From assembly GCA_963662455.3 (NCBI GenBank), contig OZ224042.1:1727234-1791233 (forward strand): a stretch of 64,000 nt of DNA, given 5' to 3'. Positions 38,936 to 56,374 of this stretch are shown one piece after another; within the stretch, counting starts at the first letter, position 1, and each line of letters starts with the position of its first letter. Source of the stretch: Acidimicrobiales bacterium. Its GTDB lineage: Bacteria; Actinomycetota; Acidimicrobiia; Acidimicrobiales; Aldehydirespiratoraceae. A program made the position numbers and the translations under genes. A model generated the notes under the pieces. The model was not told where the DNA came from. It saw only the letters and a program-made list of their open reading frames with translations, and ran no database searches.

Positions 38936-39861
38936 GACGTCCCCAACGAGAAGAGATCTTCGAGACGACGCCGGCGACGCTCGATACGAATGACTCTGGC
39001 GTTCGCATCGGCAACTGCGTCACGCACCAGGTCGGCGACCAGATCGGCGTCGGGTCCTATTACTTCCACGCGAGACGCCACTTCGCCGTGACGGACGTCG
39101 AGGCCGGACTCAGACAACTGGCTCACCACATCGTTGAAGGCATCAGGCCGATCAGCAATCTCTACCAGTTCGATCACTACGCCCTGCTCATCTCCGATGA
39201 GGTCGGTGAGCCGCCCCTGAGCGACGAGTTGGCCGGCGTCGAGGGCCACGATGTGGTCGCAGATCCGTTCGACCTCTTCAAGCAGGTGCGATGAGAGCAT
39301 CACATCGATTCCGTATTCACGGCTGACCTGACGGATCAGCGACAGCATCTCGTCGCGCTGTACCGGGTCGAGCCCGTCGGTCGGCTCGTCCAACAGCAAC
39401 AGTGAGGGATCGGAGGCAATGGCCTGAGCAAGCTTCACTCGCTGGCGTTGACCAGTAGACATGGTTCCCAGGGCCCTCGCCCGCTCCTCCCCCAGCCCGA
39501 CCAGCCAAAGCGCATCGCTGGCACGGCCCCTGGCTTCGTTGCGAGGCATGCCTCGTACTTCAGCCATGTGCTTCACAAAGTCCGAGGCGGGCATGTCCTC
39601 CGGTACAACATTGCGCTCCGGCCCGTAGCCGATCTGCGCACGCAACTCTGCGCCGTCGGTTCGCGGATCAAGTCCGAGGACCCGTGTTTGCCCTGCGGTC
39701 GGCGTTCGCAGACCCAACACCAGGCTCATCAGTGTGGTCTTGCCTGCGCCGTTGGCCCCCACCAGGCCGGTCACGCCGCTGTGCACGTCAACGTTGAGCG
39801 AGTCGAGCGCACGATATTCACCGAACTTCATCGTCAGACCGTTCGTCGTGATAATGCTCAT
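38932..39861 (-). CDS. ABC transporter ATP-binding protein
   Basis: Walker A GANGAGKTT, signature MSTGQRQR, Walker B LLLLDEP. Confidence 0.9.
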   Translation of the reverse strand: MSIITTNGLTMKFGEYRALDSLNVDVHSGVTGLVGANGAGKTTLMSLVLGLRTPTAGQTRVLGLDPRTDGAELRAQIGYGPERNVVPEDMPASDFVKHMAEVRGMPRNEARGRASDALWLVGLGEERARALGTMSTGQRQRVKLAQAIASDPSLLLLDEPTDGLDPVQRDEMLSLIRQVSREYGIDVMLSSHLLEEVERICDHIVALDAGQLVAQGRLTDLIGDEQGVVIELVEIADRPDAFNDVVSQLSESGLDVRHGEVASRVEVIGPDADLVADLVRDAVADANARVIRIERRRRRLEDLFSLGTS

Positions 39862-39934
39862 CGGACCTTCACTATACGTTATTTGACGGGCAGTACGCGG
39901 ATTGACTGTAGCACGCTGATTGGACGGGCGAGGA

Positions 39935-41971
39935 TCAGACGAGCAACGCGTCAGTCATGACTTCAACGACCGCTGGTCCTTCGTAGGCTATTGACTCAGC
40001 AATCGCCGAGGGCAACTCTTCGAGTTCGGTGACCCGAATGCCCTTGGCCCCGCAGAGTTCAGCTAATTGCCCAAAGTCCGGATTGTGCAGCGACGTCTGC
40101 CAGACATCGAAATCGGCTGCTCGCTGCTCTTTGGAGATCTTGCCGAGTTCGTTGTTGTTCATCAGCACATGGGTGATGTTCATGCCGTACTTCACCGCGG
40201 TGGTCAGTTCCATGGCGTACTGTCCGAAACCCCCGTCGCCGGAAACGGACACAACCGGCCGGTCTGCGTATTCCTGCCGGCTTCGGGTAGCAGCCCAACA
40301 GCCCATAGCTGCGGGCAACGAAAAGCCGATCGATCCGAGGTAACCCGACATCAACACGGTTTGTGCCTGCACTTCGAAGTAGCGGCCGAAAGAGTAGGTG
40401 TTGTTTCCGACGTCCACCGGCATGATGGCGTTGGCCGGCACACATCTGCTGAGTGCATCGAACAACGCTGCCGCGTTGATCCCTGCACCGCGGTCGTCTC
40501 GGCGACGGCCGGCCTTCTCGTTGCGCCAAATCTCCCAGCGTTGTGCAACTTCTGCTGCAGCACCGCTACGGGTGGTCCCTTCTGCGGAGAGTCCCGAAGC
40601 CGACCCTTCCAGTCTTTCACGCAGAGCTTCGGCGACCACCCCGACATGTCCCTGCACCGGAACCGTCACTGGATGGAAGCGGCCCAGGGCCATGGGATCG
40701 AAATCAACCTGCACGATCGGTTTGTAGTCGGCGATTCCTGTGTGATTCGCGAACGACACCCCGAACGCCACGATCATGTCGGACTCGTTCATGAACCAAC
40801 TCGCCACGGGAGTACCGGATCGGCCGAGGACTCCTACCGCGAGGTGATGCCGATCTGATATCAAGCCTTTTGCTTTGAAGGTGGTGGCGACCGGCGCATC
40901 GACGGCTTCAGCAAAAGCGACGATCTCGTTGATACCGTCGCGCGCACCGTTGCCGAGGATTACCAGGGGCCGGTCAGCGGCTGAAACCGCTTCGGCGGCT
41001 GAGCGCAACGCCTGTGTCGGCGGGGCTATTCCACGATCACCGCTACGACCCTGCGGAGATCCCGCACGGGCGGTCTGTGGAGCTGCAAGCACCTGTACCT
41101 CGTCGGGCAGCACCAAATGAGCCACGTCGCGTTCAACTATCGCCGTTTTGCATGCCAAGGTCATCAACTCACCATGGTCAGAGGTCGCCTGCACAGTTTG
41201 GGAATAGCGGGCGACGTCAGCGAACGCCGCGGCGAGGTCGGTGTCTTGAAAAGCGCCTCGCCCGCGGACTCTGCTGGGAACTTGACCGCATATCGCAAGC
41301 ACCGGCGCCCGATCTGTCTTGGCGTCGTACAGTCCGGTCATGAGGTTGGTCGATCCAGGGCCGGCGATCGCGAAACAGCATGCGAGCCCGCCGGTGAGCT
41401 TGCCGTAGGCGACCGCCGCGAACGAGGCCGCTCCCTCATGGCGGACACCGATGAAGGAGACGTCTCCACGCTCCTCGGCAGCACGTAACGCATCGGCAAA
41501 TCCGAGATTCGAATGTCCGACCATCCCAAAGACGTGTGTAACGCCCCAGTTGACCATCGTTTCAACCATCACATCAGAGACACTTCGCGGACGCACTGTT
41601 TCGACGGGCAACGCAACATACACAGCGTCGTCGCGGACCTCTGTGCGAAACGCAGCAGGGGCGTCGGAGAATGCGCCGGGTGGTTTTCCGTTCTTGGGCG
41701 AGTAGTCGTAACCGTGCCAGGGACAGCGGAGCCATCCCCCCTCGATGGATCCTTCGCCGAGCGGACCGGCCTGGTGCGGGCAGGCGTTGGCCAAACAGCC
41801 GTAGCCGCCTTCGGGGGTGCGGGTTACACAGAGGCTCTCGTGACCGACAGTGACCGTGGAGACCCGGTCTTGGGGCAACTCTTCAAGACCCATGAGCCGG
41901 TGCCACGAGAACTCGCCTTGTGGTAGAGGAGGTTCCTCGATCGACGGTCGCTCTGCAGTCGGATCGTTCAC
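39935..41971 (-). CDS. Rieske [2Fe-2S] domain fused to a thiamine-diphosphate enzyme (acetolactate synthase/pyruvate oxidase-like)
   Basis: CPH-x16-CPWH in the first 120 aa. This is followed by TPP-enzyme N, central and C domains, with GDGGFGQY...NNNELG. The GTG start overlaps the upstream stop (GTGA). Confidence 0.85.
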   Translation of the reverse strand: MNDPTAERPSIEEPPLPQGEFSWHRLMGLEELPQDRVSTVTVGHESLCVTRTPEGGYGCLANACPHQAGPLGEGSIEGGWLRCPWHGYDYSPKNGKPPGAFSDAPAAFRTEVRDDAVYVALPVETVRPRSVSDVMVETMVNWGVTHVFGMVGHSNLGFADALRAAEERGDVSFIGVRHEGAASFAAVAYGKLTGGLACCFAIAGPGSTNLMTGLYDAKTDRAPVLAICGQVPSRVRGRGAFQDTDLAAAFADVARYSQTVQATSDHGELMTLACKTAIVERDVAHLVLPDEVQVLAAPQTARAGSPQGRSGDRGIAPPTQALRSAAEAVSAADRPLVILGNGARDGINEIVAFAEAVDAPVATTFKAKGLISDRHHLAVGVLGRSGTPVASWFMNESDMIVAFGVSFANHTGIADYKPIVQVDFDPMALGRFHPVTVPVQGHVGVVAEALRERLEGSASGLSAEGTTRSGAAAEVAQRWEIWRNEKAGRRRDDRGAGINAAALFDALSRCVPANAIMPVDVGNNTYSFGRYFEVQAQTVLMSGYLGSIGFSLPAAMGCWAATRSRQEYADRPVVSVSGDGGFGQYAMELTTAVKYGMNITHVLMNNNELGKISKEQRAADFDVWQTSLHNPDFGQLAELCGAKGIRVTELEELPSAIAESIAYEGPAVVEVMTDALLV

Positions 41972-43578
41972 TTTGCTGCTCCTCCGTAGGCGATTCCGGT
42001 GAGTTGGGCCATGTCCGAGTCGAAGGTGGTGAGATCGTCGGTGCAGAACTCACTGAGGTGGGTGTGTCCGCACGCGCGCGCCAGTACTCCCATGAGTTCG
42101 GTGCTCGCAGAAAAAAACCGTTCGAGGCGGTGCGCTGCCTCTTCTACGGGAAGGCGGGCCTGCAGTTCAGGTTTTTGAGTGGCGATCCCCACCGGACAGT
42201 TGTTCGTCGAGCATGCTCGCATGCCGATGCAACCAATGGCTTGCATGGCCGAGTTGGAGACGGCCACTGCGTCAGCGCCAAGCGCCAGCGCTTTTGCGAA
42301 GTCGGTGTGGGTCCTGAGCCCACCTGTTACGACCAGGGTGACGTCTCGGCGGCCCCGAGAGTCGAGATGTCGTCGTGCCCGTGCCAGAGCTGGAATCGTC
42401 GGCACTGAAATATGGTCGCGGAAGACCACCGGTGCGGCGCCGGTTCCCCCGCCTCGGCCGTCGAGGATTATGTAGTCGACCCCGATCCGGAGTGCCGCGT
42501 CGATGTCGTCCTCGATGTGTTGGGCCGACATCTTCACCCCGATCGGTATGCCACCGCTGACTTCCCTGACTTGTTCGGCGAACCGTCGATAATCGTCTTC
42601 GCACTCGAACTCCACGAACGTGGACGGGGAGACGGCATCGGTGCCCGGTGTCAGGCCCCGGACCTCGGCGATTCTGCCTTGGACTTTGATTCCCGGCAGA
42701 TGCCCCCCTGTGCCTGTTTTGGCGCCTTGGCCGACTTTGAAGTGAAAGGCCTGCACATCGGCGACCTTGTCGATCGACCAGCCGAACTTCCCGCTCGCCA
42801 ACTCGTAGAAATAGCGCGAGTTCTCAGCCTTCTCCTCGGGCAGCATTCCGCCTTCCCCTGAGCAGATCCCGGTTCCTGCCAGTTCTGCCCCGCGTGCCAG
42901 CGCCACTTTGGCTTGTTGCGACAGTGCTCCGAAGCTCATGTCGCTGACAAACATCGGGATTTCGAGGTGCAGCGGTTTGTCTGCGTTCCTGCCGATGGTC
43001 ACCCCAGTTCCCACTTCCACATCATCGAGCAGGGGTTTGCGTGCCAGTTGGGCTGTCACGATCTGGATGTCATCCCATTTTGGGAGCAGGTTTCGCTCTA
43101 CACCCATGGACACGACTGGTCCGTGGTGGCCGAGGTAGTCCAACCCTTCGTTGGCCAACCTTCTGATCAGCCCCACATGAGGTTCAGCCGGTTCTCCGTG
43201 GGGATCTTGGTATACGCCTTGGTAGGAGTCCCTGTCGAAAGGTTGAGGATGTTCTTTTGCCCAGGCTTGGATCTCGTCGAGGTCGACCAATAGATCATCG
43301 CCTTCAACCCACGACGCGAACTTGGCGAGCCGCTCGGTGTTGTCGTAACTCGACACGCCTGTATGGAAGACATAATCCCATCCATGGAGTCCGCAGACCA
43401 GGTTGTCACCGCTGACCGAACCGTCTGCCATCAACGCGCCCCGGTGCAGACAGCGCCCGTACAGCACCGAGTGGTTGTCGTCGAAACGTACGATCACCAG
43501 ATCCACCTCGTCGACCAGGGCCCCGACCGGTTCACGATCAGGTACCTCTGACCAAGTAGCGATCTTCACAGGGCGCAT
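41968..43578 (-). CDS. Rieske-like domain fused to a glutamate-synthase-type FMN domain (GltS domain 2-like)
   Basis: CLH-x16-CGLH N-terminal. This is followed by GEGGMLPEE...GAKTGTGGHLPG...DGRGGGTGAAP, typical of FMN-binding glutamate synthase family proteins. ATG at 43578 has GGAGGAG 6 nt upstream. Confidence 0.85.
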   Translation of the reverse strand: MRPVKIATWSEVPDREPVGALVDEVDLVIVRFDDNHSVLYGRCLHRGALMADGSVSGDNLVCGLHGWDYVFHTGVSSYDNTERLAKFASWVEGDDLLVDLDEIQAWAKEHPQPFDRDSYQGVYQDPHGEPAEPHVGLIRRLANEGLDYLGHHGPVVSMGVERNLLPKWDDIQIVTAQLARKPLLDDVEVGTGVTIGRNADKPLHLEIPMFVSDMSFGALSQQAKVALARGAELAGTGICSGEGGMLPEEKAENSRYFYELASGKFGWSIDKVADVQAFHFKVGQGAKTGTGGHLPGIKVQGRIAEVRGLTPGTDAVSPSTFVEFECEDDYRRFAEQVREVSGGIPIGVKMSAQHIEDDIDAALRIGVDYIILDGRGGGTGAAPVVFRDHISVPTIPALARARRHLDSRGRRDVTLVVTGGLRTHTDFAKALALGADAVAVSNSAMQAIGCIGMRACSTNNCPVGIATQKPELQARLPVEEAAHRLERFFSASTELMGVLARACGHTHLSEFCTDDLTTFDSDMAQLTGIAYGGAAK

Positions 43579-43774
43579 ATCTGCTCCTCCATCGTCCAAT
43601 CCAATTCTAGTCCCACAGAATCGCACCACTCTGTCACGTTCTGCTCCGGAACTCGCACAAACTCGAGTAGCCGCTCAATCTCCCGAGACGGCCGGTCGTG
43701 CTTGGCTTGGGCACGGCGGGGACAGAACTTCCCACTGCGGACAGCCTCAGATGGCATCGCTTGAGATGTCCGGG

Positions 43775-46700
43775 TTAGTCGTCGTCGGTGATGGTTCCGG
43801 TGGCGGTGCCTTTGCCGTCTTCGATGGTGGCGCCTCGGGGGTTGGTGAGCTCGACGGTGAAGTACTCGTCTGGCTCTGAGCGGTAGTCGTCGATGAGCCA
43901 CACGGTCACGGTCTGTTCGGTCTGGCCGGGCGTGAACACTACTGTGTAGTCGCGGGTCTGGTAGTCGAGCCACATGTGGGCGCGGCCTGTCAGGCCCCGC
44001 CAGTTCCAGGTCGTGAACCGGACCCGCACCTCCTCGCTCGAAGCCTCTGACAACCTCACCGTGAAATCAACGGCCCATGACCCTTCAGAACCTGCAGCGT
44101 CCTCGACTGACACTGTCACCGAACTCACCGGGGGCGGATCGTCGTTGTCGGCGACATTCACGGTGCCTGTTCCCTGCGTATTAGACACCGTGTAACCACC
44201 ACCGCCGGTGTTCACCGTCACAGTCACCGAACCGTCCAACTCGTCAACCGAATCATCAGAAGTCCCGATCGTCAAGGTGACCGAGCCTGTAGTCGGGACT
44301 GTGACCGTGCGACTGCCCGTGACAGCCCCGAACGCGCCGCTCTGGGAGACTGTGACCGTCACCGGCAGGTCAGCTGTCGGCGCGGGGGCCGCGGTGAGCG
44401 TGAACGAAGCGCTGGTGCCTTCGGTCACGCCTGGCCCGGCGGTGATGCTCACCACCGGTATCGGCGGATCGTCGTCGTCGGACACCGCGACGGTGCCCGC
44501 ACCCTGTGTGTTGGACACGGTGTAGCCGCTGCCGGTATTGACCGTGGCGGTGACCGAACCGTCCAACTCGTCAACTGAGTCGTCGGTAGTGGCGACGGTG
44601 AACGACACGCTGCCGCCCGACGGGACCGTGACCGTCCGGGAGCCCGTGACAGCCCCGAACGCTCCGCTCTGGGAGACTGTGACCGTCACCGGCAAGTCCG
44701 CTGCCGGCGCGGGGGCCGCGGTGAGCGTGAACGAAGCAGCACCGCCTTCGGTGACGCCTAGCCCGGCGGTGATGCTCACCACCGGTATCGGCGGATCGTC
44801 ATCGTCAGACACATTCACGGTGCCCGCACCCTGAGTGTTCGACACGGTGTAGCCGCTGCCGGTATTGACCGTGACGGTGACCGAACCGTCCAACTCGTCA
44901 ACTGAGTCGTCGGTAGTGGCGACGGTGAACGACACGCTGCCGCCCGACGGGACAGTGACCGTCCGACTGCCCGTGACAGCACCGTAATCACCGTCGGCGC
45001 CGACGGTCACGGTCACCGGCAGATCCGCTGCCGGCGCAGGGACCGCGGTGAGCGTGAACGAAGCGTTGGTGCCTTCGGTGACGCCTGGCCCGGCGGTGAT
45101 GCTCACCACCGGTATCGGCGGATCGTCATCGTCGGACACCGCGACCGTGCCTGTTCCCTGTGTGTTGGACACGGTGTAGCCGCTGCCGGTATTGACCGTG
45201 GCGGTGACCGAACCGTCCAACTCGTCAACTGAGTCGTCGGTAGTGGCGACGGTGAACGACACGCTGCCGCCCGACGGGACCGTGACCGTCCGGGAGCCCG
45301 TGACAGCCCCGAACGCTCCGCTCTGGGAGACTGTGACCGTCACCGGCAAGTCCGCTGCCGGCGCAGGGACCGCGGTGAGCGTGAAGCTGGCAGCACCGCC
45401 CTCGGTGACGCCTGGCCCGGCGGTGATGCTCACCTGCGGGACATCATTGTCCGCAACCGCGACCGTGCCCGCCCCCTGAGTGTTGGACACGGTGTAGCCG
45501 CTGCCGGTATTGACCGTGACGGTGACCGAACCGTCGGTTTCGTCTGCGGAGTCGTCGGTAGTGGCGACGGTGAACGACACGCTGCCGCCCGACGGGACCG
45601 TGACCGTCCGGGGGCCTGTGGGCGCACCGAACGCGCCGTTCTGGGAGACTGTGACCGTCACCGGCAAGTCCGCTGCGGGCGCAGGGACCGCGGTGAGCGT
45701 GAAGCTGGCAGCACCGCCCTCGGTCACGCCTGGCCCGGCGGTGATGCTCACCTGCGGGTCCGGTATGACGACGGGCGCGACCGGGTCGTCGTCGTCGGTC
45801 ACGTCCACGGATCCTGACGCGTTCGCGCCGACCGTGTAACCGCTGCCCGCGTCGACCGTGAGTGTCACTGTCCCGTCGGGCTCATCGGTCGAGTCGCCCG
45901 TCGTGGCGATGCTCACCGTCGCGGTGCCGCCTGTAGGGATCGTCACCGTGACCGGCGTCGGGCCGTAACCGAAATCACCCGACGTGACCACGCTGACGTC
46001 CACGTCCAGATCCGCTGCGGGGGCGGGAGCGGCGGTCAGCGTGAAACTGACCGTAGTACCCTCGGTCCCGCCGGCCGAACTCAAAATACTCACCACAGGC
46101 ACCACCGGCGGCGGATCAGCCGTCGCGGCGGCTTCGATCAGCCTCAACTGCGCGGCGACCTGATCCCAACCCGACCAGACATTGGCATACACCTGCGCCC
46201 CCGCAGCCGTCAACGGCTCCAGATTGGGGTAGTCCCCGTCGCCGAACGCCTCCAACACACGCTTCCAACGGTTCACGTGCTTCACACCCCGATACGTCTC
46301 GGCGGCCTTGCTGCGCGCCGTCGCCAAAACCTGCGCATCGACCTGCACGCTCCCCCGCGCCGGCGGCGGCTGCGGGTTCACCGCGTCCAACGCCACCATA
46401 TGGGCCAGCACCGGAACCCACCGCGGCCGCCCGATGTCCACATGCACCCTCGCCTCGTCGAGCGTCGTCGGCACCAAACCCGCATAATCCTCCAACCCGA
46501 ACGCCTCCAAAACACGCTTCCAACGCGTCACGTGCAACACCCCGTGATGAACCTCCGCCGCATAACTGCGCACATCAGCCTCCAACTGCGCACCCAGCAC
46601 CGGCCCGGTCGGCGCATCATTGTCGGCAACCGCGACTGTGCCCGTCCCGTGCGTGTTCGACACCGTGTAGCCGCTGCCGGTATTGACCGTGGCGGTGACC

Positions 46701-49700
46701 GAACCGTCAGACTCGTCAACCGAATCATCAGAAGTGCCGATCGTCAAGGTGGCGCTGCCGCTGGTGGGAATGGTCACTGTCCGCGTCCCTGTGGCGGCCC
46801 CGTAGTCACCGTCGGCGCTGACAGTCACGCTGACCGGCAGATCAGACGCCGGTACGGGGCTGGCGGTGAGGGTGAATCCGGCATTGGCGCCCTCGGTGAC
46901 ATCCCCGTCAGCCGCGATGCTGACCACCGGCGCGTCATCGTCGTCTGACACCGTCACCTTGGCAGCGCCCTGAGTATTCGACACTGTGTAACCGCTGCCG
47001 TTCATCAGCGTCACCGCGGCGAAGCCGTCGACCTCGCTGACCGAGTCGCCGGTCGTGGCGACGCTGAGCGTCACACTGCCAGACGTCGGCACGGACACCG
47101 ACCTGAAACCGGACGCGACCCCGAAATCGCCGTCAGCCGAGACCAGCACACTGACGCTCAGGTCAGATGTCGGCGCGGGGGCCGCGGTGAGCGTGAACGA
47201 AGCGCTGGTGCCTTCGGTGACGCCTGGCCCGGCGGTGATGCTCACCACCGGTATCGGCGGATCGTCATCGTCAGACACATTCACGGTGCCCGTCCCGTGC
47301 GTGTTCGACACGGTGTAGCCGCTGCCGGTATTGACCGTGACGGTGACCGAACCGTCCAACTCGTCTGTGGAGTCGTCGGTAGTGGCGACGGTGAACGACA
47401 CGCTGCCGCCCGACGGGACCGTGACCGTCCGGGGGCCTGTGGGCGCACCGAACGCGCCGTTCTGGGAGACTGTGACCGTCACCGGCAAGTCCGCTGCGGG
47501 CGCAGGGACCGCGGTGAGCGTGAAGCTGGCAGCACCGCCCTCGGTCACGCCTGGCCCGGCGGTGATGCTCACCTGCGGGTCCGGTATGACGACGGGCGCG
47601 ACCGGGTCGTCGTCGTCGGTCACGTCCACGGATCCTGACGCGTTCGCGCCGACCGTGTAACCGCTGCCCGCGTCGACCGTGAGTGTCACTGTCCCGTCGG
47701 GCTCATCGGTCGAGTCGCCCGTCGTGGCGATGCTCACCGTCGCGGTGCCGCCTGTAGGGATCGTCACCGTGACCGGCGTCGGGCCGTAACCGAAATCACC
47801 CGACGTGACCACGCTGACGTCCACGTCCAGATCCGCTGCGGGGGCGGGAGCGGCGGTCAGCGTGAAACTGACCGTAGTACCCTCGGTCCCGCCGGCCGAA
47901 CTCAAAATACTCACCACAGGCACCACCGGCGGCGGATCAGCCGTCGCGGCGGCTTCGATCAGCCTCAACTGCGCGGCGACCTGATCCCAACCCGACCAGA
48001 CATTGGCATACACCTGCGCCCCCGCAGCCGTCAACGGCTCCAGATTGGGGTAGTCCCCGTCGCCGAACGCCTCCAACACACGCTTCCAACGGTTCACGTG
48101 CTTCACACCCCGATACGTCTCGGCGGCCTTGCTGCGCGCCGTCGCCAAAACCTGCGCATCCACCTGCACGCTCCCCCGCGCCGGCGGCGGCTGCGGGTTC
48201 ACCGCGTCCAACGCCACCATATGGGCCAGCACCGGAACCCACCGCGGCCGCCCGATGTCCACATGCACCCTCGCCTCGTCGAGCGTCGTCGGCACCAAAC
48301 CCGCATAATCCTCCAACCCGAACGCCTCCAAAACACGCTTCCAACGCGTCACGTGCAACGCCCCGTGATGAACCTCCGCCGCATAACTGCGCACATCAGC
48401 CTCCAACTGCGCACCCAACACCGGCCCGGTCGGCGCATCGTCGTCATCAGACACATTCACCGTGCCTGTCCCCTGAGTGGCCGACACGGTATAGCCGCTA
48501 CCGCCGTTGACTGTGGCGGTGACCGAACCGTCCAACTCGTCAACCGAGTCGTCAGAAGTGCCGATCGTCAAGGTGGCGCTGCCGCTGGTGGGAATGGTCA
48601 CTGTCCGCGTCCCTGTGGCGGCCCCGTAGTCACCGTCGGCGCTGACAGTCACGCTGACCGGCAGATCAGACGCCGGTACGGGGCTGGCGGTGAGGGTGAA
48701 TCCGGCATTGGCGCCCTCGGTGACATCCCCGTCAGCCGCGATGCTGACCACGGGCGCGTCGTCGTCGTCTGACACCGTCACCTTGGCAGCGCCCTGAGTA
48801 TTCGACACTGTGTAACCGCTGCCGTTCATCAGCGTCGCCGCGGCGAAGCCGTCGACCTCGCTGACCGAGTCGCCGGTCGTGGCGACGCTGAGCGTCACAC
48901 TGCCAGACGTCGGCACGGTCACCGACCTGAAACCGGACGCGACCCCGAAATCGCCGTCAGCCGAGACCAGCACACTGACGCTCAAACCGGCCGGCGGCAG
49001 CGGAGCAGCCGAAACCGTGAAACTCGCAGCAGCCCCCTCGGTGACACCGATGCCGCCGCTGATGCTGACCTCCGGCGTCACGGCCTGTTCCTGGACAACG
49101 ACCGTGACAGAACCACCGGGCGCGACACCCTCGGACACCCCCGTGGCGCCCGGCGCCCGGCTGCCCGTCCCGAAAGAGATCGTGATCGGCGTATGCACAT
49201 GGTCTGAGTCGGCGCGACCCCAGAAGACCAGCTCGGCGACCTGACCGCCGGCGCCGATCGTGACCTCCGACTCCGCGCCGTACGCCGTGCGCGACACCGC
49301 CGTCCCCAAATCGGCCGCGTCGGCAAGATTCCAGCTCTCATCGACCGGCCCGCCCGAGACCGTGACCGGCACACGGACGAACTCACCGGCCCTGAGCCTG
49401 CGGCTCAAACCGATCCGCAGCACCGTCTGTCCGTCGTCCTCAGAAACAGCGCCGTCATCGACCGACAGCGACAGACCCACCGGCAAAGCCCCGTCGTCGT
49501 CCGCGACAGCCACAACAGCCGAGCTAGCGTTGCTGTCCACTGTGTAGGCGGCATCCGCAGCGGGCGCGTCGAACGTCGCGGTGATGCTGCCGTCGCCCTC
49601 GTTGACTGCGTCGCCCTCGGTGCCCACGGTCAACGCCGCCGTGGCCGCGCCGGCGGGGACCGTCACCGTCCGCGCGCCGACGTCGCCGCTGACCGCGAAC

Positions 49701-52012
49701 GCGCCGCTGTCCACCACAGTCACCCCAACCGGCAGATCAGCCGTCGGAGTGGGGCTGACGCTGAGCGTGAAACCCGCGGCAGCGCCCTCAGTGACATCGC
49801 CGTCAGCCGAGATGCCGACGACGTACTTGCTGTCTGCGACAACCACAGACGCCGACGCCGTTGACGCCGGGGTGTAACCGGTGCCGGCCACGACCGTGAC
49901 AGTGACCGAACCATCAGGCTCGACCACCGTGTCGCCGACAGTCGCGACCGACAGCGTGGCGCTGCCGCTGACCGGAACCGTCACTGTCCGCGTGCCCACA
50001 ACAGCACCAAAATCACCGACCTGGGCCACACTGACGGCAACAGGCAAACCAGCAGACGGCTTCGGATCAGCTGTGAGCGTGAACTCAGCCGCCGACCCCT
50101 CAACCACACCGGCGCCACCGCTGATGCTGATCGTCGGTGTCAGGCCGTCGGAGGGCAGCAGGGCCAGTCCGTGGCCCCAGGTGTTGTCAGCGCCTGCGGC
50201 GCCGAGGTCTGCTGCGTTGGTCTTGAGATAGTCGGCCACCTGCTGGGGGGTGTAGGCGGGGTAGCGCTCGCGCACCAGCGCGGCGAGGCCCGCGACGAAC
50301 GGCGCCGACTGGCTCGTCCCGCAGAAGCTCCTGATCTCGCTCTCGCCCCTGGCAGGCTCGCAATCGAGGGCGACGATGTCGGGCTTGGTGCGTCCGTCGG
50401 GGGTGGGCCCGCGGCTGCTGTACGACTTGATGGCGAAGATGCCGTACCGTGTCTTGCCCGCGGCGCCGACCGCCAGCAGCCCCGGACTCGAGCTGTCGGC
50501 AGGGCTCGCGATGCTGCCGCCCGCGGTGTAGTGGTCGATCTGGCTCGAGGATCCGAAGACTATGAACTGCACCCACGAGGGCGCTGCGCTCGCGGCCTTC
50601 TTCTTCACGTGGACCCAGTAATACCCAGTCTTCGCCGCAGTCAGGGGCAAGCCCTCCCATGGGTAGTCCTTCGAGCCGCCGTTCTGAACGTCGGCGGCTG
50701 TGGCGACGACGGACTGAGCCCCGTCGACGGTGGCCGAGTATCTGACCTCGATATCGAGGTCCTTGGTCGAACCGCCCCAAGCATCGTCCCAACGCATGTT
50801 GATATAGATGTAGCGCGATGCGGGCAACCAGAACCTCTGGGCCTCGTCGGCGCTGCTCCCCGTGCCGTCCCACTCGTGGTAGCCGTCGTTGTCGGAGTCG
50901 GCGAACGCGCCCTTCCACGCCCTCTTTGCATAGTTGCCGGCTGAGTTGACCCAAATGATCCCGTTGTCGGCAGCCCACTTCGCCGTGTTCAGCGGACTCG
51001 GCGTGATCGGCGACGTGCCATTGGCAGCACCGTGAAACGACCAGCTCACCGAGTAAACGATGACTGTGACCCCTTGGCTGTGCATCCACTCCACAGCGCT
51101 CTGGAGATCGGCCCACGTCTTCGGATTGGAGACGTACAGTTCGGCGTCGGGGGCAATGTCCATGAGCGACCCGGCAACCACTGTGCCGTGGTCGTTGCCG
51201 CCTGCGGCGTCGCAGTTCGCCAAGTCGCTGGTGGGCCTGCCGACATCGGTGTAGCAGCGGCCGACCACCGTCGACGGCAGTTCCGTGCCGCGCAGGGCGC
51301 GCAGACCGGTGAAACCGTCCTTGGAGGTGACAGCGGTGGGTATATCGACGACGCCGACCTTCACCCCGTCGCCGGTGAAGCCGCTCCTGTGCCAAGCCGC
51401 GGCACCGTGATCACGGACGGCACCGGAGGCGACTGTGGACTGGTTCTTGAACGGCTGGGGCATCTCGCGCACGCGGGACACGCCGGTCTGCTGCGCCAGC
51501 GAGCCGAGCAGCCCGGGCGGCACGTACACCTCGAGGTAATCGCCCACCACGTTCGACGGCGACACGCCGTTGTCCGCCAAGAAGTCCACAACGTCGGCGC
51601 GGTTGCCGTCCAACTGGACCGTTAGCAGCACGGGCTCGCCGCCCAATGTGGAGTTCGCACCGCCGAGCGCAGACCCGCCGAGCGCAGACTCGCCGCCCGC
51701 AGCGCTCGCCACCGCCAACGCGCTGAGTTGCGAACCCAGATTCGGATACACCACCCCCGCCGCGAGCGACCCGTCACCAAGATCAGGGTCCAGGCCCAAC
51801 GCGCCGCCAGGCCCCAGCGAATCCGGCGGCAAACCCTCGGTGACGTCGGGACTCTGCCGGTCCGACGGAGCCGACGGATCACCGCCGGAGCCCTGCGCGG
51901 CCGCGGGCGACACCGCAACCGCCAGCACAGCCAACGACAAGCCGACCGCGACCGCGGACCGGGCCACGGCGCGCCGCCCGCACCTCATCGCGTCAAGAGA
52001 TTTCTGGAACAT
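43775..52012 (-). CDS. Giant secreted subtilisin-like (S8) protease fused to about 15 Calx-beta-like modules and two helical inserts
   Basis: Signal RRAVARSAVAVGLSLAVLAVAVSPAAA. Catalytic VGVVD, NDHGTVVAG and GTSQSAPFVAG (about 50170-51400). Repeated roughly 106-110-aa modules (SITAGPGVTEG..FTLTA.PAP.ADLPVTVTV...DDSVDELDGSVT..V...GYTVS....TV.VSDDDD). A canonical Calx-beta domain at the C-terminus. The start is uncertain (51988, 52012, 52039 or the ORF maximum 52090). Confidence 0.85.
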   Translation of the reverse strand: MFQKSLDAMRCGRRAVARSAVAVGLSLAVLAVAVSPAAAQGSGGDPSAPSDRQSPDVTEGLPPDSLGPGGALGLDPDLGDGSLAAGVVYPNLGSQLSALAVASAAGGESALGGSALGGANSTLGGEPVLLTVQLDGNRADVVDFLADNGVSPSNVVGDYLEVYVPPGLLGSLAQQTGVSRVREMPQPFKNQSTVASGAVRDHGAAAWHRSGFTGDGVKVGVVDIPTAVTSKDGFTGLRALRGTELPSTVVGRCYTDVGRPTSDLANCDAAGGNDHGTVVAGSLMDIAPDAELYVSNPKTWADLQSAVEWMHSQGVTVIVYSVSWSFHGAANGTSPITPSPLNTAKWAADNGIIWVNSAGNYAKRAWKGAFADSDNDGYHEWDGTGSSADEAQRFWLPASRYIYINMRWDDAWGGSTKDLDIEVRYSATVDGAQSVVATAADVQNGGSKDYPWEGLPLTAAKTGYYWVHVKKKAASAAPSWVQFIVFGSSSQIDHYTAGGSIASPADSSSPGLLAVGAAGKTRYGIFAIKSYSSRGPTPDGRTKPDIVALDCEPARGESEIRSFCGTSQSAPFVAGLAALVRERYPAYTPQQVADYLKTNAADLGAAGADNTWGHGLALLPSDGLTPTISISGGAGVVEGSAAEFTLTADPKPSAGLPVAVSVAQVGDFGAVVGTRTVTVPVSGSATLSVATVGDTVVEPDGSVTVTVVAGTGYTPASTASASVVVADSKYVVGISADGDVTEGAAAGFTLSVSPTPTADLPVGVTVVDSGAFAVSGDVGARTVTVPAGAATAALTVGTEGDAVNEGDGSITATFDAPAADAAYTVDSNASSAVVAVADDDGALPVGLSLSVDDGAVSEDDGQTVLRIGLSRRLRAGEFVRVPVTVSGGPVDESWNLADAADLGTAVSRTAYGAESEVTIGAGGQVAELVFWGRADSDHVHTPITISFGTGSRAPGATGVSEGVAPGGSVTVVVQEQAVTPEVSISGGIGVTEGAAASFTVSAAPLPPAGLSVSVLVSADGDFGVASGFRSVTVPTSGSVTLSVATTGDSVSEVDGFAAATLMNGSGYTVSNTQGAAKVTVSDDDDAPVVSIAADGDVTEGANAGFTLTASPVPASDLPVSVTVSADGDYGAATGTRTVTIPTSGSATLTIGTSDDSVDELDGSVTATVNGGSGYTVSATQGTGTVNVSDDDDAPTGPVLGAQLEADVRSYAAEVHHGALHVTRWKRVLEAFGLEDYAGLVPTTLDEARVHVDIGRPRWVPVLAHMVALDAVNPQPPPARGSVQVDAQVLATARSKAAETYRGVKHVNRWKRVLEAFGDGDYPNLEPLTAAGAQVYANVWSGWDQVAAQLRLIEAAATADPPPVVPVVSILSSAGGTEGTTVSFTLTAAPAPAADLDVDVSVVTSGDFGYGPTPVTVTIPTGGTATVSIATTGDSTDEPDGTVTLTVDAGSGYTVGANASGSVDVTDDDDPVAPVVIPDPQVSITAGPGVTEGGAASFTLTAVPAPAADLPVTVTVSQNGAFGAPTGPRTVTVPSGGSVSFTVATTDDSTDELDGSVTVTVNTGSGYTVSNTHGTGTVNVSDDDDPPIPVVSITAGPGVTEGTSASFTLTAAPAPTSDLSVSVLVSADGDFGVASGFRSVSVPTSGSVTLSVATTGDSVSEVDGFAAVTLMNGSGYTVSNTQGAAKVTVSDDDDAPVVSIAADGDVTEGANAGFTLTASPVPASDLPVSVTVSADGDYGAATGTRTVTIPTSGSATLTIGTSDDSVDESDGSVTATVNTGSGYTVSNTHGTGTVAVADNDAPTGPVLGAQLEADVRSYAAEVHHGVLHVTRWKRVLEAFGLEDYAGLVPTTLDEARVHVDIGRPRWVPVLAHMVALDAVNPQPPPARGSVQVDAQVLATARSKAAETYRGVKHVNRWKRVLEAFGDGDYPNLEPLTAAGAQVYANVWSGWDQVAAQLRLIEAAATADPPPVVPVVSILSSAGGTEGTTVSFTLTAAPAPAADLDVDVSVVTSGDFGYGPTPVTVTIPTGGTATVSIATTGDSTDEPDGTVTLTVDAGSGYTVGANASGSVDVTDDDDPVAPVVIPDPQVSITAGPGVTEGGAASFTLTAVPAPAADLPVTVTVSQNGAFGAPTGPRTVTVPSGGSVSFTVATTDDSADETDGSVTVTVNTGSGYTVSNTQGAGTVAVADNDVPQVSITAGPGVTEGGAASFTLTAVPAPAADLPVTVTVSQSGAFGAVTGSRTVTVPSGGSVSFTVATTDDSVDELDGSVTATVNTGSGYTVSNTQGTGTVAVSDDDDPPIPVVSITAGPGVTEGTNASFTLTAVPAPAADLPVTVTVGADGDYGAVTGSRTVTVPSGGSVSFTVATTDDSVDELDGSVTVTVNTGSGYTVSNTQGAGTVNVSDDDDPPIPVVSITAGLGVTEGGAASFTLTAAPAPAADLPVTVTVSQSGAFGAVTGSRTVTVPSGGSVSFTVATTDDSVDELDGSVTATVNTGSGYTVSNTQGAGTVAVSDDDDPPIPVVSITAGPGVTEGTSASFTLTAAPAPTADLPVTVTVSQSGAFGAVTGSRTVTVPTTGSVTLTIGTSDDSVDELDGSVTVTVNTGGGGYTVSNTQGTGTVNVADNDDPPPVSSVTVSVEDAAGSEGSWAVDFTVRLSEASSEEVRVRFTTWNWRGLTGRAHMWLDYQTRDYTVVFTPGQTEQTVTVWLIDDYRSEPDEYFTVELTNPRGATIEDGKGTATGTITDDD
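45510..48984. repeat. Internal tandem duplication of the giant gene, period 1821-1824 bp
   Basis: 45510-47160 and 47331-48984 are near-identical. For example, shadow ORFs 46116..46523 and 47937..48344 differ by 1 aa. One divergent patch of about 100 bp lies near 46615/48436. Confidence 0.85.
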
Positions 52013-52532
52013 CGAAGCGTCAAGAAGCCCCCGAAACATCCGCAATCGAATCACCGCTCCATTACATGATCCAACAGGTACACGCCGCAATTATATATTG
52101 GGCTGCCCCGGTCCATCAACCCCAGAAACAATCTCACACACCACACGACAAGGGAACGTCCAAATGTCCCGCTGTGGCCTCCTCCCGCCTCGCGTTGTGG
52201 AACGGTCAGGACTTGGCCGCAGACTTGGAGGTAAAGGCTTGCGGCGACTACCCCGACGCCCAATGATCGCTCATGACTCGACATGCTCGACCTCGGCCGT
52301 CTGCGTGCTCCTGAGCCCGTTGGCCGCCTTCGGACACCACCGAACCCTCGACTGTGACTCGTCTGCATGCTCCGGGTCGGCTCCGGAGGCTGCTGGTACT
52401 CGGTCTTGCGCTTGCTGTGCGATGTCGTGATATGGCTTGGGAGCGTCAGTGAGGCAACAAGACGAACACGCACGCGCAGCGATAGCCTCGTTGGAGCCTT
52501 GCGAATCCTCTCCCTAGTGAACTGGAGCCTTC

Positions 52533-53276
52533 ATGAGCGATTCACCCGTTTCTTCTCAAACCGCGGCTCTCGCCGTTGAAGCCACGAAGATCTACGGGGA
52601 GGGAGACACCGAGGTTCGAGCCCTCGACGGAATCGACGCGCACTTTGAGCGGGGCAAGTTCACAGCCATTATGGGGCCTTCGGGTTCGGGCAAGTCCACG
52701 CTCATGCACTGCCTGGCAGGTCTGGACACTTTGAGCGACGGGCAGATATTCATTGGTGCTACCGATCTGTCGACGTTGAGCGAACGGGATCTGACCCTGC
52801 TGCGCCGTGACGAAGTTGGATTCGTTTTTCAGGCGTTCAACCTGGTGCCGACTCTCTCGGCGCTGGAGAACATCACTTTGCCGATGGACCTCGCCGGAAC
52901 CGACCCCGACCAAGCCTGGTTGGACGAGATCGTCGACACCGTGGGGATGTCCAACCGTTTGACCCACCTGCCGAGCGAACTGTCCGGTGGACAGCAGCAG
53001 CGGGTGGCGGTGAGCCGGGCTTTGGCTAGTCGGCCTGAGATCATTTTCGCCGATGAGCCCACCGGCAACCTTGATTCCACATCCGGCACAGAAATTCTGC
53101 AGTTCATGCGAAGTGCGGTTGATGACTTCGGGCAGACCATTGTGATGGTCACCCATGACCCACTCGCTGCGGCTTACGCGGATCGGGTGATTTTCTTGGC
53201 CGACGGCAAGGTCGTCGACGAACTGCTCGACCCGACCGCCGAGCAGGTTCTCGACCAGATGAAACAGCTTCACTGA
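52533..53276 (+). CDS. ABC transporter ATP-binding protein (MacB/LolD-type)
   Basis: GPSGSGKST, LSGGQQQRVAVSRAL, IIFADEPTGNLD. Confidence 0.9.
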   Translation: MSDSPVSSQTAALAVEATKIYGEGDTEVRALDGIDAHFERGKFTAIMGPSGSGKSTLMHCLAGLDTLSDGQIFIGATDLSTLSERDLTLLRRDEVGFVFQAFNLVPTLSALENITLPMDLAGTDPDQAWLDEIVDTVGMSNRLTHLPSELSGGQQQRVAVSRALASRPEIIFADEPTGNLDSTSGTEILQFMRSAVDDFGQTIVMVTHDPLAAAYADRVIFLADGKVVDELLDPTAEQVLDQMKQLH

Positions 53277-56200
53277 TGATCTTCACGCTTATCCGACGCA
53301 ATATCTCAGGTAAGCCTTTCCGCTTCCTGCTCACCTGTTCCGCGGTCACGCTCGGGGTGATGTTCACGGTCGGGGTTTTTGTCTTCACGGACGGGTTGCG
53401 CGCCACTTTTGGAAATATCGCCGAGGACATCGGCGGGGAGACCGAGTACGCAGTTCGATCCGAGGTGGATTTCGGCGATCGTGAACTCGTCGGCGCGCCG
53501 CTCGGTGACGACATCGTGGAGTTGCTCAACAGCATCGATGGTGTCGTTGGTGTGCAACCTCAGATTCTCAAGCTTGCGTCGATCCCAATCGACGGCAACG
53601 GCGAAGCCGCCAACACCGGGGGTGCTCCCAATATCGGGGTGAATTGGCCTGATCACGGTTCTGGTTCCCAGTTGTATCTGCAAGCAGGCCGCCGACCCCA
53701 GGGTCCTGGAGAGTTCGCTCTCGACACCGACTCCCTTGATGCGGGCCACTTTGTCATCGGTGAAACTTACACTGTCGTGAACCCAGCAGGACCGGGGGAC
53801 TTCAAGCTTGTAGGTACCTTCAATTTTGCTTCACCGGACGAGAACGCTCTTGTGGGAGCAAGCCTCGTGGCTTACGAAACAGCCACTGCGCTCAAGGTCA
53901 TCAACCTCGGAACCGGCTACGACCAGATCACCTTCGAGACTCGCGGTGCAGATGCGGTCGCCAATTCGGTGGCCGCTGCTCTGCCAGCCGGGGTCGAACT
54001 CGTCACCGGTGAACAACTCGTCGAGGAGCAGACCGAGGAGTTCGAAGACTTCATCGGCACTTTCCAAACTGTCATGTTGGTGTTCGCCTTCATCATTTTG
54101 GCGGTTTCGGCCTTTGTGATCTTCAACGTCTTCACAATCCTTATCGGTCAGCGCATACGAGAACTCGGTTTGTTGCGGGCGATCGGCGCTAGTGGACCCC
54201 AGGTCACCCAGGCTTTACTCGGGGAGGCACTGTTGGTCGGTATCTTCTCAACCGTGGTCGGCACCGCTCTCGGGATCGGCTTCGGTTGGGGTTTGCGCTG
54301 GGTTTTGGGGCTGCTCGACTTCGGTCCCAGCGGAAACGAACTCCTGCTTGAACCATCAACATTCGTGTGGGGTGTTGTAGTGGGGATCGGTGTGACTATG
54401 GCCAGTGCCATCGCCCCGTCGTTGCGGGCCCGCCGAATCAGCCCGATGGCTGCACTGCGTGAAGACGCCAGACTGTCTCGTCACGTTCCCGAAGCAAACT
54501 TGGCGGCAGGCGGGTTGGCAACGATCGTCTCGTGGATGGTGGTGCTGATCGCCATCGTCAGCGACGAGTGGACGTGGATCCTCGTTCTGGGCGCGATCGG
54601 GGCTGTCGGCAACGCCTTCGGTGTTCGACGACTGGTGCCGGCCCTCGGGCGTTACGCAACTCTCGGGTTTGGTCTAGTGCTCATGCTGCTGGCGCTCGTA
54701 CTTGATCTGGGGACCACCGCCGTATTGGCTCTGGTGGGTGTCGCGGCGCTCACAATTTTCTTGGGCGTCAATAGTGTCACCCCGATCCTGGCTCGGCCTA
54801 TGAGCCATTTCATTGGACGCTGGCCGTTGGCGATCCTGTTGGGGATAGCCGGTGTTGTGACTGTTCTGGGGGGAATTGGTGCAACACTCGTTGCTCTGTT
54901 TCTGGTGCTCTTATCGGTGATTGATCTGGTGTCTGATTTCGATGGTGCCGGCATCGGCGCGTTGCTCGGTTCGCTGGCGTTGGTTCCGTTGGCATTATTG
55001 GTCGTCATGGTTGGTGTGCGCGGGGTCGACGCGGCGTTCATTATGGGTTGGAAGTTCCGTTCGGTCGCTGCGGGGGTCTTGCTGTTCTGTATGGGTGCGG
55101 TCGGCACGATCATGTTGCTGACCGGTTTGGTTGCGATTATGACCGCTGATTGGTCTTCGGTGATTTCTGTGCCTGTCGGTGCTGCGGTTCTGGTGGCAGT
55201 TGCCTGGTTGCGGCGTTGGCTGCCTAGGACGCTCAAGTCAAACGCTCGCATGGCCCGCGAGAACGCTGGCCGCAACCCGAGACGTAGCGCTTCAGCCGCC
55301 GCGGCTTTGATGATCGGCCTGGCTCTAGTCAGCACGGCCGCTGTTGTCGCGGCTTCATTCAAAGCTACTTTCGCTGATGTTCTAGAGGAGTCAGTTACTT
55401 CTGACTGGTTTGTGTCGCCTGCCGGCGGTGGGGGCCCGGATTCGTCGATCAGCCCTGCATTGGCCGACAATCTTGAACAACTTGAAGAGGTTGGGACTGT
55501 GGTCCGATACCGATTTGCGTTTGAGGCGTACCGGACAGTGTTCGACGACAGCATCCGAGATTCTTCGGCTACTGATCTGGCGACCTCGATCGATCATGTC
55601 GACCCCGATTTTGTTTCCCTTGATGAATCGCTGCTCAACAGCAACAGCATTTGGATCCATCAGGACATGGCCAACGACAACGGCTTCAACATCGGCTCCA
55701 CATTCGATATTGAGTTTCCTGACCTGAGCACCGAGACCGTTACCGTAGCCGGGATATTTACCGATTCGAGCATTTACGGCAACCGGGTGATCTCTTTGGA
55801 GTTGTGGGAGGACAAGTTCCCCACCAGCCAGGACCAGTTCATTTCGATCACTGTTCCAGACGGTGTTGATGAAGAACGAGCCCGAGCGGCGTTGCAGACT
55901 TACACTGACGACTATCCAACGCTGAACGTCGACACCCGCGATGAGTTTCAGGATCGCCAATCAAACCAGATCGATCAGGCTCTATTGGTGATCAATGTGT
56001 TGTTGGGCGTTGCGATAGTGATCGCCCTGCTTGGAATTGCGATCACTTTGGCGTTGTCTGTGTTTGAACGGACCCGTGAGCTCGGGCTGGTACGCGCGGT
56101 TGGTATGACCACCCGGCAGATGCTGCGCATGGTGCTCTTCGAGGGCGCGATCATCGCGGCTTTCGGTGGGGTTCTGGGCATCTTGTTGGGGACGGCCTTC

Positions 56201-56374
56201 GGCAGCGCCGCGGTGTCGGTCATGCCCGACGATTTCATACGCGCGCTCGACATACCGGTCGTCAATCTGTTGTTGTATCTGGTCGTCGCCGCCGTTGCGG
56301 GCATCGCCGCGGCGATCGTTCCGGCCCGCCGCGCGGCCCGTCTCAACGTCTTGGACGCCATCGCCCAAGGCTGA
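53276..56374 (+). CDS. FtsX-family ABC permease with two FtsX modules
   Basis: 1032 aa. Two copies of the RELGLLRAIGA / RELGLVRAVGM FtsX motif, and large extracytoplasmic segments. The ATG overlaps the ATPase stop. Confidence 0.85.
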   Translation: MIFTLIRRNISGKPFRFLLTCSAVTLGVMFTVGVFVFTDGLRATFGNIAEDIGGETEYAVRSEVDFGDRELVGAPLGDDIVELLNSIDGVVGVQPQILKLASIPIDGNGEAANTGGAPNIGVNWPDHGSGSQLYLQAGRRPQGPGEFALDTDSLDAGHFVIGETYTVVNPAGPGDFKLVGTFNFASPDENALVGASLVAYETATALKVINLGTGYDQITFETRGADAVANSVAAALPAGVELVTGEQLVEEQTEEFEDFIGTFQTVMLVFAFIILAVSAFVIFNVFTILIGQRIRELGLLRAIGASGPQVTQALLGEALLVGIFSTVVGTALGIGFGWGLRWVLGLLDFGPSGNELLLEPSTFVWGVVVGIGVTMASAIAPSLRARRISPMAALREDARLSRHVPEANLAAGGLATIVSWMVVLIAIVSDEWTWILVLGAIGAVGNAFGVRRLVPALGRYATLGFGLVLMLLALVLDLGTTAVLALVGVAALTIFLGVNSVTPILARPMSHFIGRWPLAILLGIAGVVTVLGGIGATLVALFLVLLSVIDLVSDFDGAGIGALLGSLALVPLALLVVMVGVRGVDAAFIMGWKFRSVAAGVLLFCMGAVGTIMLLTGLVAIMTADWSSVISVPVGAAVLVAVAWLRRWLPRTLKSNARMARENAGRNPRRSASAAAALMIGLALVSTAAVVAASFKATFADVLEESVTSDWFVSPAGGGGPDSSISPALADNLEQLEEVGTVVRYRFAFEAYRTVFDDSIRDSSATDLATSIDHVDPDFVSLDESLLNSNSIWIHQDMANDNGFNIGSTFDIEFPDLSTETVTVAGIFTDSSIYGNRVISLELWEDKFPTSQDQFISITVPDGVDEERARAALQTYTDDYPTLNVDTRDEFQDRQSNQIDQALLVINVLLGVAIVIALLGIAITLALSVFERTRELGLVRAVGMTTRQMLRMVLFEGAIIAAFGGVLGILLGTAFGSAAVSVMPDDFIRALDIPVVNLLLYLVVAAVAGIAAAIVPARRAARLNVLDAIAQG

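Follow-up and report, generated by a model that had tools for sequence, protein, structure and literature searches.

The window analysed here, a 64-kb stretch of DNA from a sponge-associated member of the Acidimicrobiia, carries on its minus strand two adjacent genes, A and B, each of which places a Rieske [2Fe-2S] domain at the N-terminus of a different catalytic scaffold. Gene A (41968-43578, 536 aa) joins its Rieske domain to a flavin mononucleotide (FMN)/[3Fe-4S] TIM-barrel domain of the "synthase" type found in glutamate synthase (GltS), and gene B (39935-41971, 678 aa) joins its own to a three-domain thiamine diphosphate (ThDP) enzyme resembling PoxB and PQO. The open reading frame of A spans 41968-43629, and its start is most plausibly the ATG at 43578 (43578-43576), with a Shine-Dalgarno-like GGAGGAG just before it (43584-43590). 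The two genes overlap by four nucleotides, in that the TGA stop of A (41968-41970) and the GTG start of B (41971-41969) have bases in common within GTGA (41968-41971); a Shine-Dalgarno-like GGAGG (41981-41985) lies 9 nt ahead of this GTG, within the 3' end of A. The same geometry is found in the relatives L001-L009 (we label loci from other assemblies L and protein cluster representatives P), where the match to B starts at the final sense base of A. The region 39028-43638, including the junction, is covered by unitigs from four sponge-derived runs of three studies with 0-1 differing letters, and the gene pair is hence no assembly artefact. A search for RNA evidence of co-transcription of A and B yielded DNA-like unitigs of flat depth only; a scan for promoters and terminators gave no signal exceeding the shuffled background. 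The loci closest to this pair belong to metagenome-assembled genomes (MAGs) of "Candidatus Aldehydirespiratoraceae" and Acidimicrobiaceae.

An earlier note on this DNA, made from the letters, had reported the GTGA overlap, a complete Rieske motif heading each gene and the fusion of these heads to two distinct scaffolds, and had named the domain models that ought to match. All of this is borne out. Both reading frames are present on the minus strand, and Pfam matches Rieske (1.4e-11) and Glu_synthase (PF01645, 8.1e-91) in protein A, and Rieske (5.7e-15), TPP_enzyme_N (4.5e-34), TPP_enzyme_M (1.5e-29) and TPP_enzyme_C (1.2e-33) in protein B, with the GGGTGAAP motif present in A and the GDG...NN motif in B. 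The Rieske domain of A reaches 44.6 bits and that of B 55.4 bits, against a Pfam gathering score of 20.3 bits. The former occupies approximately residues 1-100 (43276-43578, minus strand), with its ligands C43, H45, C62 and H65 in the boxes C43-L-H45 and C62-G-L-H65, 16 residues apart, and without the extra disulfide cysteines of the bc1 type. The latter takes up approximately residues 20-125 (41597-41914, minus strand), with ligands C64, H66, C83 and H86 in the boxes C64-P-H66 and C83-P-W-H86. Matches to the NCBIfam models HcaC and AndAb are weak. A recent duplication of one head onto both genes can be ruled out, as the two domains are just 25% identical to each other.

The C-terminal 400 residues of A constitute the GltS "synthase" domain. 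They contain a [3Fe-4S] motif that the earlier note did not mention, C450-IGMRA-C456-STNN-C461-P (42193-42231, minus strand), which aligns with the C-x5-C-x4-CP of the B. subtilis, A. brasilense and Synechocystis GltS. GltS alpha subunits and ferredoxin-dependent GltS (Fd-GltS) are the best PDB relatives of A by sequence (E 2.5e-40 to 3.6e-31), and GltS is also the best fold match (1OFD, 1EA0, 7MFM; query-normalised template-modelling score, TMq, 0.56-0.58 over 360-413 columns) for an AlphaFold2 (AF2) model with a predicted local distance difference test (pLDDT) of 86.4 and a predicted template-modelling score (pTM) of 0.75. Across 127 homologues of A, the four Rieske ligands, the three [3Fe-4S] cysteines and E242, Q284, K287 and R307 are invariant. 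The last four residues align with E903, Q969, K972 and R992 of Synechocystis Fd-GltS (1LLW), which, together with Q978, are presumably the residues of the 2-oxoglutarate/2-iminoglutarate site described with the 1LM1 and 1OFD structures. The amidotransferase, central and GXGXG domains are missing from the 536-aa protein, the domain search of which yielded Rieske and Glu_synthase only, and the NCBIfam model of the GltS large subunit reaches just 137 of the 1047 bits required by its cut-off. Taken together, these two observations place A outside the glutamate synthases in the family sense and make it a stand-alone synthase-domain protein.

Protein B shows the ThDP/Mg motif G578-D-G (578-580) ... 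N605-N606 (40151-40240, minus strand), followed by a family signature, N605-N-x-E-L-G-K611-I-S-K-E-Q-R617 (40121-40159, minus strand). In 120 homologues of B, the residues C83, H86, G578, D579 and N606 and the catalytic Glu179 are invariant, and C64 and H66 (119/120), G580 (119/120) and N605 (110/120) nearly so; K611, which aligns with Phe465 of PoxB, is likewise invariant, together with most of the signature around it. The highest-scoring NCBIfam model is the pyruvate oxidase PRK08611 (374 bits, cut-off 742), followed by PoxB-type pyruvate dehydrogenases (291 and 289 bits), with acetolactate synthase models at 280 bits or less; all of these matches lie under their equivalog cut-offs. The best PDB sequence matches are PoxB (3EYA/3EY9) and L. 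plantarum POX (E ~1e-58). The AF2 model (pLDDT 87.3, pTM 0.83) superposes on C-terminally truncated PoxB (3EYA) with a target-normalised score (TMt) of 0.89-0.90, as opposed to 0.80 for full-length PoxB (3EY9), and on truncated PQO (9EV6) with 0.85-0.86, as opposed to 0.78-0.79 for the full-length protein. In fold, B thus comes nearest to PoxB and PQO in their protease-activated or truncated state. In PoxB, the C-terminal lipid-activation helix (residues 558-568) directs the enzyme to the membrane quinone and controls Phe465 (PMC7245740). All 120 homologues of B end seven residues past the pyrophosphate-binding (PP) domain, with the B alignment stopping at residue 526 of the 572 of PoxB, and they consequently lack this helix. 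The middle domain contains the nucleotide motifs LGNGA, FGVSF and VQVDFDP, which align with those of PoxB, and we consider it probable that flavin adenine dinucleotide (FAD) is bound there. The earlier note had called B a ThDP-dependent C-C bond enzyme. Since the NCBIfam, PDB sequence and fold matches all favour the PoxB/PQO type, B is more aptly regarded as an oxidative 2-oxoacid decarboxylase resembling PoxB and PQO than as an enzyme that forms C-C bonds.

It could nevertheless be argued that one or other of the proteins performs no net redox chemistry: A might be a redox-neutral amine exchanger like MgsC, or B a non-redox carboligase with a vestigial FAD, in the manner of acetohydroxyacid synthase (AHAS) or glyoxylate carboligase, with the Rieske domains serving structural or regulatory ends. 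One JGI annotation does call a homologue "methylamine-glutamate N-methyltransferase subunit C", B is devoid of the electron-transfer Phe of PoxB, and the fold of B also matches AHAS and 2-hydroxyacyl-CoA lyases well. We regard this explanation as highly improbable, given that the eight Rieske ligands and three [3Fe-4S] cysteines are invariant or nearly so over 120-127 homologues, that no partner of the MgsA or MgsB type flanks A, and that the pyruvate oxidase and PoxB models outscore (374, 291 and 289 bits) the AHAS models (at most 280) on B.

Homologue searches return thousands of relatives of each protein. A close relative of A occurs in 281 species-level genomes, all of them Acidimicrobiia-like MAGs, sponge symbionts included, and more distant pairs are present in other lineages. 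Eighty A-centred loci were fetched from species-representative genomes among these 281. B is present in 36 of them, mostly directly downstream of A, and in 25, A is flanked on either side by at least 4 kb of sequence in which B is missing, which leaves 19 loci undecidable and a ratio of 36 to 25 among the 61 decidable ones. Eighty B-centred loci fetched from metagenomes divide into 28 with A, 32 without A despite at least 1.7 kb of sequence upstream of B, and 20 without A and with less than 1.7 kb upstream. When the open reading frames of both 80-locus sets were clustered, A and B emerged as each other's sole conserved neighbour over an identity range of 57-93%; no other conserved family that might hint at a substrate was found in the 160 loci, the remaining neighbours, apart from a recurrent Na+/H+-exchanger-family gene described below, being lineage-specific. 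The arrangement of the two genes could be tallied for 51 pairs at loci also represented in a tree of A, excluding partial copies of A: B directly follows A on the same strand in 38, lies 0.3-6.5 kb downstream on the same strand in six, and converges with A in three, while the order is reversed in four. In the tree (96 sequences, midpoint root), the paired state appears on both sides of the root and requires 10 changes, at least six of them forced, against a mean of 21 when shuffled. This distribution indicates that the linkage is old, that it was disrupted or lost on several occasions, and that it has outlasted rearrangement. The adjacency of A and B is thus often kept in relatives, and its conservation argues for a functional tie between the two genes, albeit not an obligate one.

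A and B might also be independent enzymes with unrelated substrates, brought together only by a common redox partner, by regulation or by the supply of cofactors (Fe-S, flavin), with no metabolite handed from one to the other. Such a view would readily accommodate the frequency with which A and B are encoded apart, their variable order and spacing, in which unrelated genes and as much as 6.5 kb may intervene, and the riboflavin operon that separates B from A in one of the loci described below (L169). It is harder to reconcile with a paired state that extends across the whole tree of A and persists despite large divergence, with a commonest arrangement consisting of direct overlap or a spacer of less than 100 nt, and with the expectation that the product class of A, a 2-oxo acid, is the substrate class of B. 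We hence deem full metabolic independence quite unlikely.

Relatives of the A core were searched among 1.84 billion cluster representatives, and their N-termini turn out to be varied. At 59-65% identity to the A core, the head consists of two CDGSH motifs, of Fer4_19 plus CDGSH, or is missing altogether; at 37-42% identity, it may be CDGSH plus Fer4_19 plus Rieske, rubredoxin plus CCG, or GXGXG plus Fer4. Representatives that carry such alternative heads on a GltS-type FMN/[3Fe-4S] core include P0244-P0246, P0264, P0270, P0275, P0277 and P0301. The occurrence of other iron-sulfur heads on relatives of A suggests that the head of A is a generic, swappable electron port and not a private connector, and the core itself marks a large, uncharacterised superfamily whose electron ports are modular. 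The fusion of CDGSH to a GltS FMN domain has been catalogued as "type 5 CISD", with no function assigned (Lin et al., 2011, PMC3174974; Sengupta et al., 2018, PMC5859297). No ThDP partner was found near the CDGSH-headed relative of A at the single locus examined (L084). The contigs of the distant Rieske-GltS proteins P0251, P0252 and P0259 are too short for genomic context, and the gene overlapping P0252 contains neither a Rieske nor a ThDP domain.

The loci L129 and L160, which form the deepest clade of the A tree, proved in a motif scan to encode a third Rieske protein. By Pfam, this protein combines Ferric_reduct (PF01794) with a C-terminal Rieske domain, and we refer to it as FRD::Rieske, after the ferric reductase domain (FRD). 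The FRD+Rieske architecture is listed as an electron-transfer variant in a survey of the FRD superfamily (Zhang et al., 2013, PMC3591440), whose families receive their electrons on the cytoplasmic side. FRD::Rieske has thousands of homologues, and those with a named source belong to MAGs of Planctomycetota and Acidobacteriota. Six FRD::Rieske proteins were then looked up on longer contigs (L165-L171). In L165 and L171, the gene shares with A and B a seven-gene operon with overlapping junctions, x-A-B-s87-s160-FRD::Rieske-p251. In L169, A is divergent from the FRD::Rieske cassette and B lies about 8 kb off, separated from A by ribD-ribE-ribBA-ribH and a phosphodiesterase gene. The cassette occurs without A or B in L167/L168 and L170, and the presence of A or B is undecidable in L166. 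A also adjoins the FRD::Rieske gene in L129, L160 and L169, with B adjacent in L129 and L160. The A and B of L165 are 65% and 59% identical to those of the window, and hence orthologues. The presence of FRD::Rieske in orthologous operons points to a shared partner, outside the pair, for both A and B.

We note that the cassette recurs as a unit of four genes, both with and without A-B, encoding an 87-aa protein, a 150-166-aa protein, the Ferric_reduct::Rieske protein and one of 251-281 aa that matches no Pfam model (L165:7268-9805, L171:7250-9811, L160:10007-12559, L167:7241-9991). The riboflavin genes that lie between the B and A orthologues of L169 (L169:1-7201; ribD, riboflavin synthase, ribBA and ribH, along with a phosphodiesterase-family gene) mean that flavin supply is encoded there beside the two flavoenzymes.

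These observations bear directly on the dedicated electron relay between A and B that the earlier note had envisaged. In its most explicit form, B would oxidise pyruvate or another 2-oxo acid and pass the electrons from FAD to its own Rieske cluster, on to that of A, and then through the [3Fe-4S] cluster to FMN, where A would aminate 2-oxoglutarate with free ammonia, the sum being a 2-oxoacid-driven glutamate synthase in need of neither NAD(P)H nor ferredoxin. Much about the pair is congenial to this scheme: the 4-nt overlap and the Shine-Dalgarno sequence imply 1:1 synthesis, GltS-type FMN/[3Fe-4S] domains usually take up electrons to reduce 2-iminoglutarate and A keeps residues of the GltS site, PoxB-type enzymes donate electrons, and B is the sole conserved neighbour of A. 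The functional linkage that the relay presupposes is upheld. The privacy of the relay is not, for in 25 of the 61 decidable species-level loci no B lies within 4 kb or more to either side of A, at least 32 of the 80 B-centred loci lack A, a relative of A with another Fe-S head (L084, one locus) has no ThDP partner nearby, two Rieske heads exceed what a private wire needs, and orthologous pairs share an operon with a third Rieske protein, a membrane haem conduit. Together with the swappable head of A, this leads us to consider a closed relay unlikely, if still a serious contender.

We favour instead, at a probability of roughly 40%, a reading in which A and B are two dehydrogenases that feed a shared acceptor. 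Both would be cytoplasmic flavoenzymes made in fixed proportion, each using its N-terminal Rieske [2Fe-2S] cluster as a single-electron port. A, with its FMN and [3Fe-4S] cluster, would interconvert an amino acid and the corresponding 2-imino/2-oxo acid, most likely glutamate and 2-oxoglutarate, and its electrons would travel from the amino acid to FMN, to the [3Fe-4S] cluster and to the Rieske cluster. B, with ThDP and probably FAD, would catalyse the oxidative decarboxylation of a 2-oxo acid, with electrons moving from the 2-oxo acid to ThDP, FAD and Rieske; having lost the C-terminus that targets its relatives to the membrane and to quinone, it would have its Rieske head take over as the electron exit. 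The product class of A, 2-oxo acids, would be the substrate class of B, so that the two may act on consecutive metabolites, from amino acid to 2-oxo acid to carboxylate plus CO2. Both proteins would dock with, and pass electrons Rieske-to-Rieske to, a shared Rieske-bearing acceptor, which in other lineages may be the FRD::Rieske di-haem protein encoded in the same operon, acting in the membrane with its small partner proteins.

Several considerations weigh against this proposal. GltS normally runs in the reductive direction, and the translational coupling of the two genes suits a 1:1 complex relaying electrons from B to A equally well. The substrates would be assigned from a handful of residues: four of the five GltS 2-oxoglutarate-site residues are kept in A, and the fifth, Q978, is replaced by His293, at a position that is variable in the wider family. 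The invariant Lys611 of B sits where PoxB and POX have the Phe used for electron transfer from ThDP to FAD, which makes FAD-dependent redox chemistry in B no more than putative. Finally, a tblastn search with the L165 cassette proteins detected no FRD::Rieske cassette in the 64-kb window, where just the Rieske domains of A and B matched, nor is one present in the Acidimicrobiia loci examined; in this genome, the acceptor would have to be encoded outside the window.

The genes that flank the pair offer no clue to a substrate, in agreement with the earlier note: they comprise an ABC-2 exporter operon, an enoyl-CoA hydratase, a MacB-type ABC transporter and a giant S8 protease. The last of these, an 8.3-kb S8-protease/Calx-beta gene (43775-52090), separates A from the MacB-type ABC genes (52533-56374). 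In L001 and similar close relatives, the same two MacB-type genes (ABC_tran + FtsX/MacB_PCD) directly precede A in divergent orientation, which suggests that the protease gene was inserted or expanded in this lineage. Across the repeat modules of the protease gene (43682-46000), the summed unitig depth rises 10- to 50-fold in all four runs, with several "skip" joints, a pattern more in keeping with multi-mapping of Calx-beta-like repeats that are nearly identical than with a change in copy number. Further afield, a membrane gene of the Na+/H+-exchanger family (PF00999) lies beside A or B in about 11 of the 160 loci (L028:6625-8025, L154:4087-5349, L149, L152, L086 and others), and sits between B and A in L154. 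In L149 and L152 it directly follows B, and a second, distant GltS-domain protein, 33-35% identical to A and without a Rieske head (L149:10505-12019, L152:13730-14677), is encoded on the other strand, 4-5 kb away from B.

The constituent domains and their fusion architectures are already catalogued in databases, yet neither an assigned reaction nor a study was found for A or B. Our literature searches, in line with the earlier note's statement that no characterised pathway has this architecture, returned no characterised Rieske-GltS or Rieske-ThDP enzyme or pathway, only catalogues of domain architectures (PMC3174974, PMC5859297, PMC3591440). What this window contributes is an intact, translationally coupled copy of the pair from the Acidimicrobiia, a census of its neighbourhood, phylogenetic evidence for an old linkage, the differences that set B apart from PoxB (Lys611 and the absent C-terminal tail), and a separate check of the association with FRD::Rieske. 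The catalytic cores are textbook enzymes, GltS in nitrogen assimilation and PoxB/PQO in overflow metabolism, and the Rieske-headed versions are without an assigned reaction. If the heads are indeed electron ports, they would constitute a new link between amino-acid/2-oxoacid metabolism and an electron-transfer chain that dispenses with NAD(P)H, ferredoxin and quinone binding, and would suggest a function for the large superfamily of "GltS-domain-only" proteins, type 5 CDGSH proteins included. A bolder generalisation, which we entertain as somewhat doubtful, is that of a "Rieske plug-in" network, in which cytoplasmic dehydrogenases of unrelated fold would each use a Rieske head to deliver single electrons to a Rieske-fused di-haem membrane conduit, so that the oxidation of amino acids and 2-oxo acids would be coupled to electron export or to a new point of respiratory entry; alternatively, the pair could embody a pyruvate-driven glutamate synthase operating without NAD(P)H or ferredoxin.

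Comparison with known systems helps to delimit what is peculiar to this pair. With GltS alpha and Fd-GltS (1EA0, 1OFD, 1LLW, 7MFM), A has in common the TIM-barrel FMN domain, the C-x5-C-x4-CP [3Fe-4S] motif, the motifs GEGG, QGAK.G.GG.LPG.KV and GGTGA.P, the Arg of "VRG", and equivalents of E903, Q969, K972 and R992. It departs from them in being without Ntn (N-terminal nucleophile) amidotransferase, central and GXGXG domains, in using a Rieske head in place of a beta subunit or ferredoxin as its presumptive electron port, in having His293 for Q978 and SPSTFVEFECEDDY where GltS has the motif SPPPHHDIYSIEDL, and in an identity of approximately 28% over the domain. In the N-methylglutamate synthase MgsABC, MgsC adjoins the GATase-like MgsA and the GXGXG protein MgsB, whereas the neighbours of A are B, the S8 protease and the ABC-2 operon. 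Type 5 CDGSH proteins are closer in plan, being likewise uncharacterised proteins with an N-terminal [2Fe-2S] head on a GltS-type FMN/[3Fe-4S] core 60-65% identical to A, but their head is CDGSH, sometimes with Fer4_19, instead of Rieske.

For B, the natural references are PoxB of E. coli, PQO of C. glutamicum, CidC of S. aureus and POX of L. plantarum, with which it has in common the three-domain ThDP fold, the catalytic Glu (E179), the FQ(E/D) and GDG...NN motifs and the aligned nucleotide motifs of the middle domain. In contrast to these enzymes, B has gained an N-terminal Rieske domain and has lost, in 120 of 120 homologues, the C-terminal lipid-activation or membrane helix; it has Lys611 for the electron-transfer Phe465 of PoxB and Phe479 of POX, is approximately 26-30% identical to them, and scores under every NCBIfam equivalog cut-off. 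The heads of both A and B resemble Rieske ferredoxins and Rieske-fused reductases (HcaC, AndAb, NirD-type) in their small fold, their CxH-x16-CxxH motif and the absence of a bc1-type disulfide, and are distinct from the Rieske proteins of oxygenase systems in being fused to FMN/[3Fe-4S] and ThDP enzymes, with no oxygenase component nearby. The FRD::Rieske protein, which is known from genes alone and was seen beside A-B outside the window (L165, L171, L160, L129), invites comparison with the long FRD forms (NOX/FRE) and with MsrQ/YedZ. By analogy with these, the di-haem protein would carry cytoplasmic electrons across the membrane, with the difference that its donors would be separate Rieske-headed dehydrogenases, and not a fused FAD/NADPH domain or quinol.

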